Source: Escherichia coli | GTDB lineage: Bacteria; Pseudomonadota; Gammaproteobacteria; Enterobacterales; Enterobacteriaceae | Length of the DNA stretch: 64,000 bases | Reading direction: 5' to 3' (one strand) | Assembly: GCF_016903815.1 (NCBI RefSeq) | Contig: NZ_CP069973.1 | Shown here: piece after piece, positions 30,447 to 36,139 of the stretch | Layout: each line of letters starts with the position of its first letter | Numbering within the stretch: the first letter of the stretch is position 1 | Translations under genes and position numbers: made by a program | The notes under the pieces: model-generated | Databases searched by the model: none | Told to the model about the DNA's origin: nothing | Seen by the model: only the letters and a program-made list of their open reading frames with translations

Positions 30447-31238
30447 ATGAGCGAGAAATTAAAGATAGTCTATCGCCCATTACAAGAATTGTCACCGTAT
30501 GCGCACAACGCCAGGACGCACAGTACTGAGCAGGTGGCACAACTGGTAGAAAGTATTAAGCAATTCGGCTGGACTAATCCGGTGCTGATTGACGAAAAGG
30601 GCGAAATTATTGCGGGTCACGGTCGTGTTATGGCGGCTGAAATGCTCAAAATGGATTCTGTTCCGGTCATTGTTCTGTCTGGCCTGACGGATGAGCAGAA
30701 AAAGGCGTACCGCCTGGCAGATAATCGCCTGCCGATGAATGCTGGCTGGGATGAAGATCTGTTGCGGATGGAGCTGTCGGACCTAATCAATGCTGATTTT
30801 GATGTCTCCCTGACAGGCTTCATCCCGACAGAAATTGATGAACTGTTGACGGATGTTTTGCCCGGTACAGGAAATGAGGAGGAGCCGTATACGACGAAAA
30901 TTGATACGCCTGTTTATGAGCCGTCGGGCGGTAAACCGGATATCAGTGAACTGTACGACGATACGAAAACTCAGGAGCTGATCAGCCGGATACGTTCGGC
31001 GTCCCTTGAGCCTGATATTGAGAAATTCCTCCTGTGTGCGGCAGAACGTCACACGGTGTTTAATTTCAGCAGAATTGCGGACTATTACGCTCACGCCCCC
31101 TCTGAAATTCAGTGTTTTTTCGAGGAGTCGGCGCTGGTGATCATTGATTATCAGCAGGCTATTGAAAATGGATTTGTCCGGATGACGCAGCGCATGGTGG
31201 AGATCATGCATGGTGGTGAGGAGGAGGAATATGCGTGA
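30447..31238 (+). CDS. ParB/Srx N-terminal-domain protein (full-length counterpart of the K-12 ynaK remnant)
   Basis: 263 aa. ParB-like nuclease-domain motifs are present (LSPYAHNARTHSTEQVAQLVESIKQFGWTNPVLID...IIAGHGRVMAA...LTDEQKKAYRLADNRL), followed by an unrelated acidic C-terminal half. Confidence 0.8.
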   Translation: MSEKLKIVYRPLQELSPYAHNARTHSTEQVAQLVESIKQFGWTNPVLIDEKGEIIAGHGRVMAAEMLKMDSVPVIVLSGLTDEQKKAYRLADNRLPMNAGWDEDLLRMELSDLINADFDVSLTGFIPTEIDELLTDVLPGTGNEEEPYTTKIDTPVYEPSGGKPDISELYDDTKTQELISRIRSASLEPDIEKFLLCAAERHTVFNFSRIADYYAHAPSEIQCFFEESALVIIDYQQAIENGFVRMTQRMVEIMHGGEEEEYA

Positions 31239-32163
31239 TGATTTTTGCGCCTTTATTCTGACTCACGGGCGACCGGACAAAGTTCTGACTTACCGGACGT
31301 TGCGTCGTGCTGGCTATACCGGGAAAATTTTTATCGTTGTTGATGATGAAGATAAGACACGGCATCAGTACATGGCTGAATTTGGGGAACAGGTGCTGGT
31401 GTTTTCCAAAGCCGATATCGCCAGTCGTTTTGACGAAGCCGATAATTTCTGTGACCGCCGCTCAATTTTTTACGCCCGTAATGCCTGTTTCGACCTGGCA
31501 AAACTGGTCGGGTGTAAATACTTCATTCAGCTCGATGATGATTATCACGAGTTCCAGTTTCGGGTGGATCGCAACTATGACCAGGCCTATTTTCCGATAA
31601 GGAAACTGGATGCGATCCTTTCTGAAATGCTGGCGTACTACGAATCAATACCTGCTCTTTCCATCGCTATGTCGCAGGGCGGGGATTTTCTTGGTGACAA
31701 TGGCGGCCATGCTTCGTGGGTGAAACGCAAGGCAATGAACAGCTTTATCTGTTCGGTTGAACGACCGTTCTCATTCATGGGGCGCATTAACGAGGATGTG
31801 AATACGTACACGAATCTCGGTCGCTGTGGTGAATTGTTTATGACGATCGGTGCTGTCCAGTTAGGGCAGAAACAGACGCAGAAAAACAGCGGCGGAATGA
31901 CCGAGCTGTATCTGGATTCCGGAACCTACGTTAAAAGTTTTTACTCCGTCATGTATGCGCCGTCGTGCGTAAAAATCTCACTGATGGGTGCCAGCCATAA
32001 ACGCATTCACCATCAGGTCACCTGGAACAACGCTGCAGTAAAAATCCTTCACGAAAAATACAGGAAGAAGACACCCTGCATATCAATGGGGGTGACAAAT
32101 GATTCCGTATTCGAAAGTCGAGTCTCTGGCAGCGTGCCGGATGACTGCACAACAAATCGCTGA
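31231..32163 (+). CDS. uncharacterised protein, possibly GT-A-fold nucleotide-sugar transferase-like (counterpart of the K-12 ydaY remnant)
   Basis: 310 aa from ATG 31231 (SD GAGGAGGA), with an 8-nt overlap with the ParB-like gene. It has an N-terminal beta-alpha start (CAFILTHGRPDKV), IFIVVDDED and a hydrophobic strand plus QLDDDY (DxD-like). The fold call is weak. Confidence 0.55.
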   Translation: MRDDFCAFILTHGRPDKVLTYRTLRRAGYTGKIFIVVDDEDKTRHQYMAEFGEQVLVFSKADIASRFDEADNFCDRRSIFYARNACFDLAKLVGCKYFIQLDDDYHEFQFRVDRNYDQAYFPIRKLDAILSEMLAYYESIPALSIAMSQGGDFLGDNGGHASWVKRKAMNSFICSVERPFSFMGRINEDVNTYTNLGRCGELFMTIGAVQLGQKQTQKNSGGMTELYLDSGTYVKSFYSVMYAPSCVKISLMGASHKRIHHQVTWNNAAVKILHEKYRKKTPCISMGVTNDSVFESRVSGSVPDDCTTNR

Positions 32164-32350
32164 CGTTCTGGATGTTGATCTGAACCGACTGAAAGAAAAT
32201 CGGGAAGCAATGACAGATTTTTATGCGGCCATCCGTAAGGGCAGAGCGAAAGGTGAAGCCGAGTTACGAGCGGCATTGTTTAAGCTTGCCAGAAAAGGGG
32301 ATGCCTTTGCTCTGCGCGAACTACTCAGGGTGGATAAAAATCAGGACTAA
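32099..32350 (+). CDS. small HTH protein upstream of the terminase
   Basis: 83 aa (CRMTAQQIADVLDVDLNRLKENREAM...). It overlaps the end of the preceding ORF by 65 nt, so the start is uncertain (alternative Met at 32141). Confidence 0.45.
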   Translation: MIPYSKVESLAACRMTAQQIADVLDVDLNRLKENREAMTDFYAAIRKGRAKGEAELRAALFKLARKGDAFALRELLRVDKNQD

Positions 32351-32353
32351 CTG

Positions 32354-33448
32354 ATGAGCAGACCGGACTGGGGGGCGTTGCAGCAGGAGTATATTGCTGA
32401 ATACACCCGCTCCGGTATATCTCCGGTGGCATGGTGTGAAGCAAGGGGACTGAATTACGCAACAGCCCGTCGTTACATCAAAAAAACTCCGAAAAATGCG
32501 CAGACAGAAATGTGCAAAACTGCGCAAAAAAGTGCGCAGAAAAAATCTGCGCAGACTGCACAAAAGCGGAACGAAAAATCTCAGGAAAAAAAGCCAGTAT
32601 TCGATGCGGGCCTGAATGAGGGCGACGCGGAGGAATTTTCGTTCTGTCCCGATGAATTCGGCATTTCTGACCAGCAGGCTAAGTTTGCGATGCTTGTTGC
32701 TCAGGGTAAAAAGCCGACAGAGGCGTACCGACTAGCCGGTTATGAGGGGCAAGGTGCGACAGCTAATAGCAACGCCAGTCGTATGCTTAGAAATGCCAGG
32801 GTTTTTCGCGCTATCAGCTACTTCCGCAATCAGTACCAGAAACGCTATACCGCAGACCTGGATTTACTAGTGAGTCAGTTGATGGCCATTGTCCTGGCCG
32901 ACCCCAATCAGCTTGCACAATTTCGCCGTGTTAACTGCCGTTATTGCTGGGGCGAGAATCATCTCTACCAGTGGCGCGATATAGCAGAATTCGACAAGGC
33001 AGCGGCGCAGGCTTCCAGAGATGGCAAACCCGAACCGGAATATGGAGGCCTCGGCTTTGTTGATAACGCCATACCCAATCCGGACTGCCCGAAGTGCTGC
33101 GGTGAGGGAACGGGACAGCTTTATATGGCTGATACCACTCTGCTTGATGGGGATGCGCGGCAATTATATGCAGGGGCAAAATTCGGAAAATTCGGCGTTG
33201 AGATCCTGCTGGAGGATAAGGCTGCCGCCCGGCGTGAATTGTTGCGTTTGCTTTCTGCTGGCGGGGCTTTATGTGCAGATAAGCGGCTACAGGAACTGGA
33301 AATTGAACGGCGCAGAATGGAAAACCAGAAGCTGCGCAAAGAGATCGAAACGGTGGAAGATAATGAACATCCCCAGCCTGTGGCGATCAATATTAATGTG
33401 GTTGATGCCAGAGTAAGGAGTGATGAAGATGATCTCTCCGACGCTTAA
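32354..33448 (+). CDS. terminase small subunit (Terminase_2-like core with N-terminal HTH and C-terminal Cys4 motif)
   Basis: 364 aa. Core motif is FAMLVAQGKKPTEAYRLAGYEG...NASRMLRNARV. CRYCWG...CPKCCGEG forms a Cys4 cluster. It lies directly upstream of the large subunit. Confidence 0.75.
   Translation: MSRPDWGALQQEYIAEYTRSGISPVAWCEARGLNYATARRYIKKTPKNAQTEMCKTAQKSAQKKSAQTAQKRNEKSQEKKPVFDAGLNEGDAEEFSFCPDEFGISDQQAKFAMLVAQGKKPTEAYRLAGYEGQGATANSNASRMLRNARVFRAISYFRNQYQKRYTADLDLLVSQLMAIVLADPNQLAQFRRVNCRYCWGENHLYQWRDIAEFDKAAAQASRDGKPEPEYGGLGFVDNAIPNPDCPKCCGEGTGQLYMADTTLLDGDARQLYAGAKFGKFGVEILLEDKAAARRELLRLLSAGGALCADKRLQELEIERRRMENQKLRKEIETVEDNEHPQPVAININVVDARVRSDEDDLSDA
32497..32564 (+). repeat. array of six TG(C/T)(G/A)CA(A/G)A motifs inside the small-terminase gene (candidate pac/TerS binding site)
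   Basis: Motif starts are at 32497, 32511, 32521, 32533, 32548 and 32557 (spacings 14, 10, 12, 15, 9 nt). Four copies are exact TGCGCA(A/G)A. Confidence 0.4.
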
Positions 33449-34730
33449 TGTGCCTCAGGCGCGATTTCTTTCAATGCCCCATAAATTTAAAGCCTATATT
33501 GCTGGTTTTGGCTCGGGCAAAACATGGGTTGGGTGTGGCGGCATATGCAAGGGGATTTGGGAGCATCCAGGTATAAATCAGGGATATTTTGCGCCAACGT
33601 ATCCCCAAATTCGCGATATTTTTTACCCTACAGTGGAAGAAGTTGCTGCTGACTGGGGATTGAACGTAAAAATTAATGAGGGAAATAAAGAGGTTCACTT
33701 TTATTACGGACGCCAGTATCGGGGAACCACTATCTGCAGATCGATGGAGAAGCCACAAACGATCGTCGGTTTCAAAATTGGTAATGCGTTGGTGGATGAA
33801 CTGGACATTTTGCCGAAGGAAAAAGCCAGAACGGCGTGGCGCAAGATAATTGCACGTATGCGTTATAAGATTGATGGACTTCGCAACGGTATTGACGTTA
33901 CAACCACGCCGGAAGGATTCAAATTTGTCTACGAGCAGTTTGTTAAAGCCGTGCGTGAAAAAACAGAGCTGGCCTCACTGTATGGTCTGGTGCAGGCATC
34001 TACTTTCGATAATGAAAAGAACCTGCCAGCAGATTACATTCCTTCGCTTCTTGAATCATACCCTCCAGAGCTGATTAAAGCCTATCTTCGAGGACAGTTT
34101 ACTAACCTGACAAGTGGTACTGTTTACCATCAGTTTGACCGGAAACTGAATAATTGCGAAGAAGTGGAGCAGCCAGGGGAGCCGATTTATATTGGGATGG
34201 ATTTTAACGTTGGAAAGATGGCGGGAATCGTCCATGTGCTGCGTTTGGGGCTTCCATGTGCGGTAACTGAAATCATCAATGCCTACGATACGCCGGATAT
34301 GATCCGCATCATTAAAGAACGCTTCTGGCTGTATGATGGGAATGATTACCGGAAAGTGAGGGAAATTTATATTTATCCAGATGCTTCCGGGGATTCCAGA
34401 AAATCAAGTAACGCAAGTACGACGGATATAGCCCAGCTTAAGCAGGCTGGTTTTAACGTTGTGGTGAACAGCTCGAACCCGCCAGTAAAAGATCGCGTTA
34501 ACTCAATGAATGCAATGTTCTGCAATGCCAATGGTGAGCGTCGCTATAAAGTTAATGTGAAGCGTTGCCCGTTATATGCCGAATCTCTGGAGCAACAGGT
34601 CTGGGATGAGAAGGGGGAGCCTGATAAAAAATCTGGCAATGATCACCCGAATGATGCCGGAGGTTATTTCATCGTTAAGCAATTCCCTATTGTCAAACCG
34701 ACCGGAAGAGTCACATCACTTCGGATTTAA
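33423..34730 (+). CDS. terminase large subunit
   Basis: About 435 aa with Walker A GFGSGKTWVG, Walker B-like ALVDELD and a C-terminal nuclease region. Start ambiguous (33420, 33423 or 33429). Confidence 0.9.
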   Translation: MKMISPTLNVPQARFLSMPHKFKAYIAGFGSGKTWVGCGGICKGIWEHPGINQGYFAPTYPQIRDIFYPTVEEVAADWGLNVKINEGNKEVHFYYGRQYRGTTICRSMEKPQTIVGFKIGNALVDELDILPKEKARTAWRKIIARMRYKIDGLRNGIDVTTTPEGFKFVYEQFVKAVREKTELASLYGLVQASTFDNEKNLPADYIPSLLESYPPELIKAYLRGQFTNLTSGTVYHQFDRKLNNCEEVEQPGEPIYIGMDFNVGKMAGIVHVLRLGLPCAVTEIINAYDTPDMIRIIKERFWLYDGNDYRKVREIYIYPDASGDSRKSSNASTTDIAQLKQAGFNVVVNSSNPPVKDRVNSMNAMFCNANGERRYKVNVKRCPLYAESLEQQVWDEKGEPDKKSGNDHPNDAGGYFIVKQFPIVKPTGRVTSLRI

Positions 34731-34732
34731 TT

Positions 34733-36139
34733 ATGGCTGATATATCAACACCCAACCTCGACTATAACGATATGCTGGAGGCGTGGGATATTAACGACGC
34801 ACTGATGGGCGGTACGCTTGAAATGCGCAGGCAGGGGGAAAATTATCTCCCAAAATGGCCTAACGAAGATGAAGACGCTTATAAAAAACGCCTGTCTGTG
34901 GCTACGCTACTTCCTGTGTATGAAGAAAGCATCAAGCAAAATATTGGGCGCATATTTGCAGAGCCGACAGTATTGAGTGAGGAAACGCCGGCAAAAATCA
35001 GGGAATATGCAGAAAATATCGACATGGAGGGGAGCCGACTGGATGTGTGGGCGCAGCAATTTTTCAGCCTCGCATTTCAGTATGGTGTGGCACATGCGCT
35101 GGTGGACTATCCACGAACGGATATGAAAGAGATTCGGACAAAAGCCGATGAAAACGCGGCCGGTGGTCGTCCGTACGTTACGATGCTGAATCCACGCCAG
35201 GTTATTGGATGGAAATCGAAAGTTGAAAAAGGGAAAGTTGTTCTCACTGATTTGCGTATAAAAGAGGTCATCATTATTGATGGTGATGATTTCGGGCAGA
35301 AGAAGGTGGAGCAGATCCGCCATATTATGCCCCGTCGAGTTGAAATTTATCGACGTAGCGAAGGCACTAATGGCGAATCTGTCTGGACGCTTCATGAGTC
35401 ATGGAATACCAGCCGTGATGATATTCCTCTGGTAACACTGTACACGAAGAAAACAGGATTTATGCGTGGTACACCGCCATTGCTTAATCTTGGCTTGCTG
35501 AATATCAAGCACTGGCAAAGCCAGAGCGAGCAGGACAATATTCTTCATGTTGCCCGCGTTCCATTGCTGGTGGCCTACGGGCTGGACAGGAATGAAGAAC
35601 TGACGGTTGGTGCATCCACCGCTACGATTTTTGAGGACAGAACAAAAAATGGCCTCGAATATGTTGAACATAGTGGCGCAGCGATAGAATCTGGCGAAAC
35701 ATCACTTGAGAAGCTGGAAAATCAGATGCGTCATGCCGGCGCTAAACTTCTGCGTGCTGAAAATACATCCACCAAATCTGTTGATCAGACTAATGAAGAG
35801 CGAATGCAGGAAAACTCGCCGCTTTATACAATGGCGAACTCCCTCGAAGATGCCCTCGATAATATTCTCCAGATAATGGCGGAATGGATCGGAGAGAGTT
35901 GCGGTGGCAATGTGGATGTGCGCACTGAACTGGATGTATCTGCCCAGGTGTTTGACTCATCCTCCGCGCTGGCTGTTCAGTCATTGCGTCAGGGCGGTGA
36001 TATACGTCAGATTGATGCGGTTCGGGTGTTGCAGGCGTTGAAATTTATCGATCAGGATTCCCGTCCAGAGGAAGTGATCGATGAATTAAAAAATCAGAGT
36101 GTAATGCTGATGGAAATCAATGATGCAAACCGTGAATGA
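34733..36139 (+). CDS. portal protein
   Basis: 468 aa, immediately after TerL. Size and position are typical. Confidence 0.8.
   Translation: MADISTPNLDYNDMLEAWDINDALMGGTLEMRRQGENYLPKWPNEDEDAYKKRLSVATLLPVYEESIKQNIGRIFAEPTVLSEETPAKIREYAENIDMEGSRLDVWAQQFFSLAFQYGVAHALVDYPRTDMKEIRTKADENAAGGRPYVTMLNPRQVIGWKSKVEKGKVVLTDLRIKEVIIIDGDDFGQKKVEQIRHIMPRRVEIYRRSEGTNGESVWTLHESWNTSRDDIPLVTLYTKKTGFMRGTPPLLNLGLLNIKHWQSQSEQDNILHVARVPLLVAYGLDRNEELTVGASTATIFEDRTKNGLEYVEHSGAAIESGETSLEKLENQMRHAGAKLLRAENTSTKSVDQTNEERMQENSPLYTMANSLEDALDNILQIMAEWIGESCGGNVDVRTELDVSAQVFDSSSALAVQSLRQGGDIRQIDAVRVLQALKFIDQDSRPEEVIDELKNQSVMLMEINDANRE

Follow-up and report, generated by a model that had tools for sequence, protein, structure and literature searches.

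The terminase locus

This analysis concerns an array of six short hexamers inside terS, the small-terminase gene of a prophage carried on a 64-kb stretch of Escherichia coli DNA (contig NZ_CP069973.1; hereafter the window). The trkG gene lies just 5' of the terminase region, and the element is therefore a Rac-type E. coli prophage; its terS is found in 895 of 5426 complete E. coli genomes. An earlier reading of the bare sequence (the original prediction) had proposed that the hexamers form the packaging-initiation (pac) site. The features on which the argument rests are as follows (nt, nucleotides; aa, amino acids; HTH, helix-turn-helix).

32354..33448, plus strand: terS, small terminase gene, 364 aa (open reading frame; Pfam Terminase_2; phrog_51)
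32354..32485, plus strand: N-terminal accessory HTH module, aa 1-44 (...GLNYATARRYIKK), the proposed hexamer reader (AlphaFold2, hhalign, PHROG, co-variation)
32486..32650, plus strand: linker-coding segment, aa 45-99, predicted to be disordered, A-rich, bearing the array (AlphaFold2, alignment)
32497..32502, plus strand: hexamer 1, TGCGCA, codon frame xxT GCG CAx, encoding Ala-Gln
32511..32516, plus strand: hexamer 2, TGTGCA, degenerate, codon frame xTG TGC Axx, encoding Met-Cys-Lys
32521..32526, plus strand: hexamer 3, TGCGCA
32533..32538, plus strand: hexamer 4, TGCGCA
32548..32553, plus strand: hexamer 5, TGCGCA
32557..32562, plus strand: hexamer 6, TGCACA, degenerate
32497, 32533 and 32548 (starts), plus strand: octamer TGCGCAGA (exact sequence check)
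32511 (start), plus strand: octamer TGTGCAAA (exact sequence check)
32521 (start), plus strand: octamer TGCGCAAA (exact sequence check)
32557 (start), plus strand: octamer TGCACAAA (exact sequence check)
32660..32833, plus strand: Terminase_2-type DNA-binding HTH region of the TerS core, aa ~103-160 (Pfam start, PDB match, model confidence)

All six motifs are thus present on the plus strand where they had been predicted. Together they form an array of TGYRCA hexamers at 32497-32564 (nt 144-211 of terS), four of the six being exact TGCGCA. Hexamers 2 and 6 are one-base variants, and most relatives (many, in the case of hexamer 6) have TGCGCA at these positions. The start-to-start spacings are 14, 10, 12, 15 and 9 nt (mean 12, range 9-15), as had been stated. 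The accompanying suggestion that the motifs are phased at about one per helical turn does not hold strictly; among relatives the spacings range from 7 to 27 nt, and helical phasing was rejected as a conserved feature.

The clustering is local. The density of TGYRCA in the window is 1.14 per kb, every other 100-nt stretch holds at most two copies, and the Poisson probability of at least six copies in 68 nt is about 3e-10. The octamer pattern occurs 29 times in the window against 27 expected, that is, with no overall enrichment, and the next TGCGCA is ~780 nt downstream of the array. No Rfam family was found at the locus. Eight A-tracts of at least four A lie within 112 bp (32481-32592) and might supply intrinsic curvature near the array.

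The protein has an unusual layout. Pfam Terminase_2 (PF03592) matches aa 122-321 with 35.1 bits against a cut-off of 26.1 (E 2.4e-8), and phrog_51, annotated 'terminase small subunit', covers the full length (E 2.4e-76). AlphaFold2 places three short helices in aa 1-44 (6-20, 24-30 and 35-38; predicted local distance difference test, pLDDT, 66-77). The Terminase_2 HTH region at aa 100-180 is better defined (pLDDT 70-86 over aa ~103-160), and aa 108-158 give a weak PDB sequence match to the Pam5 small terminase. The helices of aa 1-44 are separate from the Terminase_2 HTH and hence constitute an extra HTH ahead of the canonical one. Between the two, aa 45-93 have a pLDDT of only 26-40 and are probably disordered according to the model. 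This linker is the least conserved stretch of the protein alignment, with insertions and deletions, and both its length and the number of hexamers (4-7) vary among close relatives. The placement of the array in a variable K/A/Q linker (...KNAQTEMCKTAQKSAQKKSAQTAQK...) between the N-terminal HTH and the Terminase_2 core was therefore correctly predicted. Thus, the window TerS does not consist of a single N-terminal HTH joined directly to an oligomerisation core, the usual Terminase_2 arrangement; the canonical domain is preceded by an additional HTH (aa 1-44) and ~55 aa of linker, and a Cys-rich insert splits the core.

The hexamers are conserved as DNA

Five of the six window hexamers encode Ala-Gln within a K/A/Q-rich peptide, and hexamer 2 alone is in another frame; in most E. 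coli relatives its position is held by an exact TGCGCA that encodes [Met/Leu/Val]-Arg-Lys. For a broader comparison, an alignment of the N-terminal domain was scanned against one genome per species, which gave 49 loci from many Enterobacterales genera, Vibrio and Aeromonas. Motif statistics were taken from 50 non-identical loci, made up of the species-scan loci and two phage records.

In these 50 loci, TGCGCA occurs at 23.9 per kb in nt 121-300 of terS versus 0.69 per kb in 146 kb of flanking DNA, a difference of ~35-fold. The 215 hexamers are split 157/49/9 across the three reading frames, so that 27% are outside the main frame, and depending on the frame they encode A-Q, [MLV]-R-x or C-A. 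Relatives carry 3-8 copies overall, some of them in split arrays, and the spacings as well as the intervening peptides differ among lineages. Furthermore, Ala-Gln is spelled T-GCG-CAR in 89% of cases in the linker versus 20% elsewhere in the same loci (Fisher P 4e-50, kinship ignored). In the Klebsiella-type group, pairwise identity at third codon positions is 87% in the hexamers, 66% in the HTH-coding segment and 61% in the spacers. The direction of these DNA-level counts is unambiguous in the sequences compared, despite their shared ancestry. Given the mixed frames, the conservation of synonymous sites and the co-variation with the HTH described below, we conclude from these alignments that the hexamer is conserved as DNA and not as a by-product of the peptide.

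The converse search points to the same partner: when triple, closely spaced TGCGCA was sought in viral contigs, 52 of 80 sampled loci adjoined this HTH. In the Rac-SA53 lineage (L001, KU052037, 1412-2440; L009), a deletion has taken the HTH together with the first hexamer; of the five remaining hexamer positions, two hold an intact TGCGCA and three are mutated. This lineage also carries the LT-IIa enterotoxin, and the deletion joins terS to another gene, the product being annotated as a gpO-TerS fusion.

A protein search with the 50-aa N-terminus returned mostly truncated TerS of 79-88 aa and did not reach distant relatives. The truncated entries (P0001-P0032) carry +1 or -1 shifts in various A-runs of the array (window 32480-32595), which are either sequencing errors in homopolymers or mark a genuine mutational hot spot by which terS is inactivated in cryptic prophages. 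A 'double-frameshift' allele (P0081/P0083; L264, L265) was considered as proof that the linker peptide is dispensable, and was not used as evidence. The allele is apparently full length, with its linker translated from another frame; the DNA has three separate +1 A-run insertions, in two samples of one project, and probably reflects homopolymer sequencing error.

The hexamer changes with the N-terminal HTH

The sole constant companion of the array is the 44-residue N-terminal domain encoded just 5' of it (...GLNY-x-x-A-R-R-Y-I-K-K). To relate the two, we compared 119 unique sequences, which came from phage records as well as from genomes and metagenomes. Where the last helix reads A-R-R-[Y/H], at least three TGCGCA are present in 98 of 102 unique sequences; the other four have few hexamers or none, and two of them (L121, L131) are short open reading frames. 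Where it reads A-K-R-Y, all 11 of 11 sequences have TGCGAA(T), often as the palindrome TGCGAATTCGCA, and none has TGCGCA. This Lys39 subgroup (L094, L096, L101, L113, L139, L314-L317, L321 and L142, Yersinia phage vB_YenM_21.09) spans two different TerS cores. In the 933W type, with the helix A-R-T-R, the array consists of four ATYGATCATRA (GATCAT) repeats. Position 39 is the discriminating one, since a sequence with Arg39 but Ile44 has TGCGCA.

Over aa 1-35, the Lys-type HTHs are interspersed among the Arg-types; one pair is identical at 35/35 residues, and two Lys-type HTHs are closer to an Arg-type than to other Lys-types. On this pattern, it would appear that either the motif switch occurred repeatedly or recombination moves helix 3 and the array together. 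The HTHs are found on three TerS cores, namely Terminase_2 with a Cys-rich insert, a 933W-type core without a Pfam match, and a short Terminase_2. Arg- and Lys-type HTHs each occur on at least two of these; hence, the motif follows the HTH and not the core.

Two further TerS genes carry a different, HTH_50-like N-terminal HTH: L010 (PP818812, 'Actinobacillus phage vB_Apl-pPE4', 507-1598) and L146 (~1948-2581). The core of L010 is the same as that of the window TerS, and its linker has two repeats of GTTTCCAC followed by two inverted GTGGAAA; the linker of L146 has TGCGCA in mixed frames. TerS genes in general may follow a plan in which an HTH precedes an array of its own sites.

The pac site of phage P1 as a precedent

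The systems cited in the original prediction did not include phage P1, which turns out to be the closest parallel. The N-termini of the window TerS, a Klebsiella homologue and the 933W TerS each match phrog_1711, the phage P1 PacA family (E 4e-5 to 4e-6), and in the reverse direction the PacA N-terminus matches phrog_370, the 933W TerS family (E 1.4e-4). BLASTP aligns the TerS and PacA N-termini in register (E 8e-4). With hhalign, the HTH alignment matches PacA aa 1-80 at 89.9% probability (E 1.7e-6) over 38 columns (PacA aa 3-40), and the match ends at a common ...LN-x-x-TARRY[IL][KR]. The homology is seen by BLASTP, hhalign and PHROG profiles only; a narrow hidden Markov model of the HTH gave no match to P1 PacA.

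In P1, pac is a 161-bp segment inside pacA with seven hexamers, Dam methylation control and a dependence on IHF/HU, and synonymous recoding of the hexamers lowers the titre ~9-fold (PMC10028697). Its layout of HEX4, IHF site with cleavage, and HEX3 was worked out by Sternberg & Coulby 1987-1990 and Skorupski 1992/1994 (summarised in PMC10028697). In the annotated P1 genome we find the TGATCA/G hexamers at pacA nt 194, 201, 213 and 228 and at nt 324, 336, 347 and 375, in two reading frames, flanking the annotated IHF site (256-268) and the pac cleavage positions (276-285).

The window locus shares the following with P1: (I) hexamers of the form TG..CA (TGATCA/G in P1, TGCGCA here) lie in the 5' third of the small-subunit gene; (II) the array starts just past a homologous N-terminal HTH (PacA aa ~3-40; TerS aa 1-44); (III) the hexamers, 7-8 in P1 and 4-7 here, are in mixed frames; (IV) the large-subunit gene follows immediately 3'. 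The core differs, as that of the window TerS is Terminase_2 with a Cys-rich insert and not the PacA core (phrog_1711). The architecture is therefore that of P1 pac rather than a new class; what is new is the hexamer, its arrangement in one cluster, the lack of Dam and IHF features, and the different TerS core.

Packaging and alternative explanations

The packaging genes that follow terS are:

33420..34730, plus strand: terL, large terminase, overlapping the 3' end of terS (Pfam Terminase_6N + Terminase_6C)
34733..36139, plus strand: probable portal protein gene, after terL in the packaging operon (Pfam DUF4055, E 5.5e-45; portal identity from its position directly 3' of terL)

TerL is 40-51% identical to the TerL of Dhillonvirus, Kagunavirus and Jerseyvirus-type siphophages. 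Two phages with TerL of those types are reported, on PhageTerm evidence, to package by the headful mechanism with a preferred pac site (PMC13348001, PMC6627115). This similarity suggests that the present prophage is a headful packager.

We conclude that the array is probably, with a likelihood of roughly 70%, the recognition part of the pac site of this Rac-type prophage, built on the plan of P1 pac. The strongest argument for a role in packaging is positional: relative to a homologous domain, the array lies where P1 has its proven pac site; in this respect the candidate pac site now has a mapped hexamer array, at the same position in the gene, as its precedent.

Under this reading we infer hexamer binding, an avidity mechanism, the position and direction of the first cut and headful packaging. 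The N-terminal HTH of each subunit of the TerS oligomer would read one hexamer, and several weak contacts would sum to specific, high-avidity binding on concatemeric phage DNA. TerL, which is of the Terminase_6 type, would then be recruited and make the first cut nearby, after which the headful series would run toward terL and the head genes. Since their coding sequences adjoin, the reader domain and its target would be inherited or exchanged among TerS cores as one cassette. Adding a specific reader makes sense in this family, as in SF6 the Terminase_2 DNA-binding domain shows no sequence specificity when it binds pac DNA (PMC4737164).

As a clue to the termini, we considered where the GenBank records of related phages end; these positions do not coincide with the array and are uninformative. 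The linear record of phi367 (L141, PV189406, locus 1501-2287), for instance, ends inside terS (nt 787/807) and not at the repeat array. A note in that record describes the genome as circularly permuted, and its end is uninformative on pac.

Several points weigh against the assignment of the array to pac. The window array includes two degenerate copies, and part of it arose through tandem duplication, the Tandem Repeats Finder showing weak periodicities of 12 nt (x2.3) and 36 nt (x2.1). The copies are thus not independent, and chance statistics alone therefore say little on function. Likewise, many of the loci compared share descent, and fewer independent events lie behind the counts than the figures imply. 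AlphaFold2 models the complete TerS poorly (mean pLDDT 50.9), and the homology to PacA rests on ~38 aligned residues. We know of no mapping of P1 hexamer binding to the N-terminal domain of PacA. Moreover, P1 PacA shares the A-R-R-Y helix yet uses TGATCA, so that residue 39 is not the sole determinant of the motif. Finally, the layout departs from that of P1 in three respects that bear on cleavage in P1: a single 68-bp cluster stands in place of two clusters ~90 bp apart around the cut; no IHF consensus (WATCAANNNNTTR, at most one mismatch) occurs within 32200-32900; and the hexamers have no GATC, none being present within 32440-32640, so a P1-style control by Dam methylation cannot apply.

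The alternative that survives best, which we nevertheless regard as unlikely, is that the array is bound by the HTH encoded in cis for a regulatory purpose (autoregulation of terS/terL, a roadblock or an antisense terminator), the true pac lying elsewhere. The co-variation, reading-frame and synonymous-site data establish the coupling of HTH and hexamer only, and not what it is for; in addition, the Terminase_2 core has a DNA-binding HTH of its own. As palindromes with A-runs on either side, the hexamers also give rise, on the minus strand of 32533-32564, to two terminator-like hairpins followed by T-runs (TGCGCAGATTTTTTCTGCGCA + CTTTTTT). These are probably incidental, although they could stop antisense transcription. 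Against a regulatory role, the homologous module of P1 belongs to the pacase, and the P1 hexamers have been mapped as pac. No sigma-70-like or other promoter-like site was found within 32000-33000, and every cassette in the loci examined forms the N-terminal part of a TerS (three different cores are represented), none being a regulator that stands on its own. With a core domain of the SF6 type being non-specific, another specific reader is also needed.

A second alternative, that the hexamers are a by-product of a K/A/Q peptide linker grown by replication slippage and have no function as DNA, appears strongly disfavoured by the sequence comparisons. It would account for the predominance of Ala-Gln in one frame, the 12- and 36-nt periodicity, the variable copy number among close relatives and the predicted disorder of the linker. 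It does not explain why more than a quarter of the hexamers encode other residues in other frames, why synonymous positions inside the hexamers are conserved well above other synonymous sites, why the hexamer persists in Enterobacterales, Vibrio and Aeromonas although spacers and peptide diverge, or why the motif switches with a single HTH residue.

Least probable of all is a recombination joint or a target or decoy for something other than TerS (restriction-modification, defence or the ParB-like/glycosyltransferase pair encoded just upstream): TGCGCA is a palindrome of the restriction-enzyme type (FspI) and BLAST homology to Rac-SA53 and the Klebsiella phages breaks off within the array, but the only constant partner is the cis-encoded HTH, with whose helix the motif changes, the upstream genes vary (lysis genes in Yersinia, Aeromonas and 933W phages), and TGCGCA is neither enriched nor avoided elsewhere in the window (34 found versus 30 expected).

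Comparison with other packaging systems

Besides P1, a related array is present in the gene of the 933W/VT2-Sakai-type TerS (L0112, phrog_370).

1501-2307 of AF125520 (L140): 933W terS, with its array at ~nt 135-185 of the gene

The N-terminal HTH of this TerS is ~51% identical to that of the window and is followed directly by a repeat array, four ATYGATCATRA with a 12-nt period. The four repeats are in frame (ATCGATCATgaa, ATTGATCATaaa, ACCGATCATgaa, ATCGATCATgac; peptide IDHEIDHKTDHEIDH). They differ from the window array in their GATCAT motif, each repeat including a GATC Dam site as in P1, just as the protein differs in its A-R-T-R helix and in a core without a Pfam match. The GATCAT array is likely the pac site of 933W/VT2-Sakai-type phages.

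The pac region of SPP1/SF6 (pacL-pacC-pacR, boxes a/b/c; G1P) belongs with a TerS of the same Terminase_2 core family, and its direct repeats reach the 5' end of the TerS gene (PMC4737164). Packaging in these phages is headful, and the SPP1 box repeats do not drive binding (PMC4737164). Unlike the window TerS, with its second HTH that co-varies with a sharply defined hexamer, the SPP1/SF6 protein has a single N-terminal DNA-binding domain; the repeats of SPP1 also cover the promoter region upstream of the gene.

In lambda, the cosB site (R1-R3 and an IHF site) lies near the terminase genes and consists of short repeats that are read by the N-terminal winged HTH of gpNu1. It resembles the window in combining repeated short sites with an N-terminal HTH of the small terminase subunit, here the proposed reader. 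It differs in being located upstream of Nu1 and not inside a coding sequence, in its cohesive ends and in the class of its TerL. The window array is intragenic and is accompanied by a Terminase_6N/6C TerL with headful siphophage relatives, which sets it apart from a cosB of the lambda type, and no sequence relationship was detected between the lambda cosB system and the window TerS or array.

P22 and Sf6, which the original prediction had offered as analogies, prove to be poor ones. Both package by headful from a pac inside the small terminase gene, which is the one point in common; the P22 site is a single asymmetric 22-bp sequence in gene 3. These are single sites in an unrelated TerS family that has no accessory N-terminal HTH cassette. 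(Both pac sites are cited in PMC11260489.)

In the open-access literature, we found no description of a TGCGCA array in a terminase gene, and no pac site described for Rac-type or 933W-type phages, the 933W GATCAT array included.

Other features of the locus

32936..33100, plus strand: Cys cluster, an insert within the Terminase_2 profile (invariant cysteines; spread of the profile)
32099-32350, plus strand: open reading frame of 83 aa directly 5' of terS
30447-31238 and 31210-32163, plus strand: a ParB_N-domain gene and a gene for a TET-associated glycosyltransferase (Pfam TAGT, E 1e-34)

The C-terminal Cys cluster noted in the original prediction is real: C195, C198, C245, C248 and C249 (CRYC ... 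CPKCC) are invariant in 19 homologues. Profile positions 19-129 of Terminase_2 are stretched across aa 122-321, and a Cys-rich insertion thus splits the profile. The cluster is a probable zinc ribbon, in a region where AlphaFold2 is unreliable (pLDDT <50).

The 83-aa open reading frame has no Pfam match and matches phrog_309, another small-terminase family, in its mid-part only (positions 145-218/319, E 8e-23); a remnant and an accessory DNA-binding protein are both possible. The ParB_N and TAGT genes are placed between trkG and the terminase genes, and the pair may be a phage DNA-modification module.

Implications

How small terminases pick their own DNA is a long-standing problem, to which an add-on HTH with a co-changing hexamer array offers a testable answer. 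The prophage type is common in E. coli, and a related module is present in 933W-type Shiga-toxin phages. A known pac site together with its direction would predict the neighbouring host genes that lateral or generalised transduction can mobilise. It would also help to annotate the packaging strategy from sequence, and could provide a small DNA tag for packageable phagemids, as P1 pac already does.

Two results extend the original finding and make TerS specificity directly testable: the cassette is broadly distributed, Shiga-toxin phages included, and residue and base co-vary. The co-variation of Arg/Lys with C/A suggests a one-residue swap of specificity. We are evenly divided on the broader proposal that the HTH and the array following it constitute a portable packaging-specificity cassette, which would give pac specificity to otherwise non-specific TerS cores, of the Terminase_2 type and others, through a readable code at residue 39 (Arg39 for TGCGCA, Lys39 for TGCGAA(T), and the 933W helix for GATCAT). 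Such a cassette would be shared by P1, the 933W-type Shiga-toxin phages and more than 100 Rac-, Klebsiella-, Yersinia-, Vibrio- and Aeromonas-type prophages. If this is true, pac sites would be predictable from sequence and could be reprogrammed by swapping one residue together with the hexamers.

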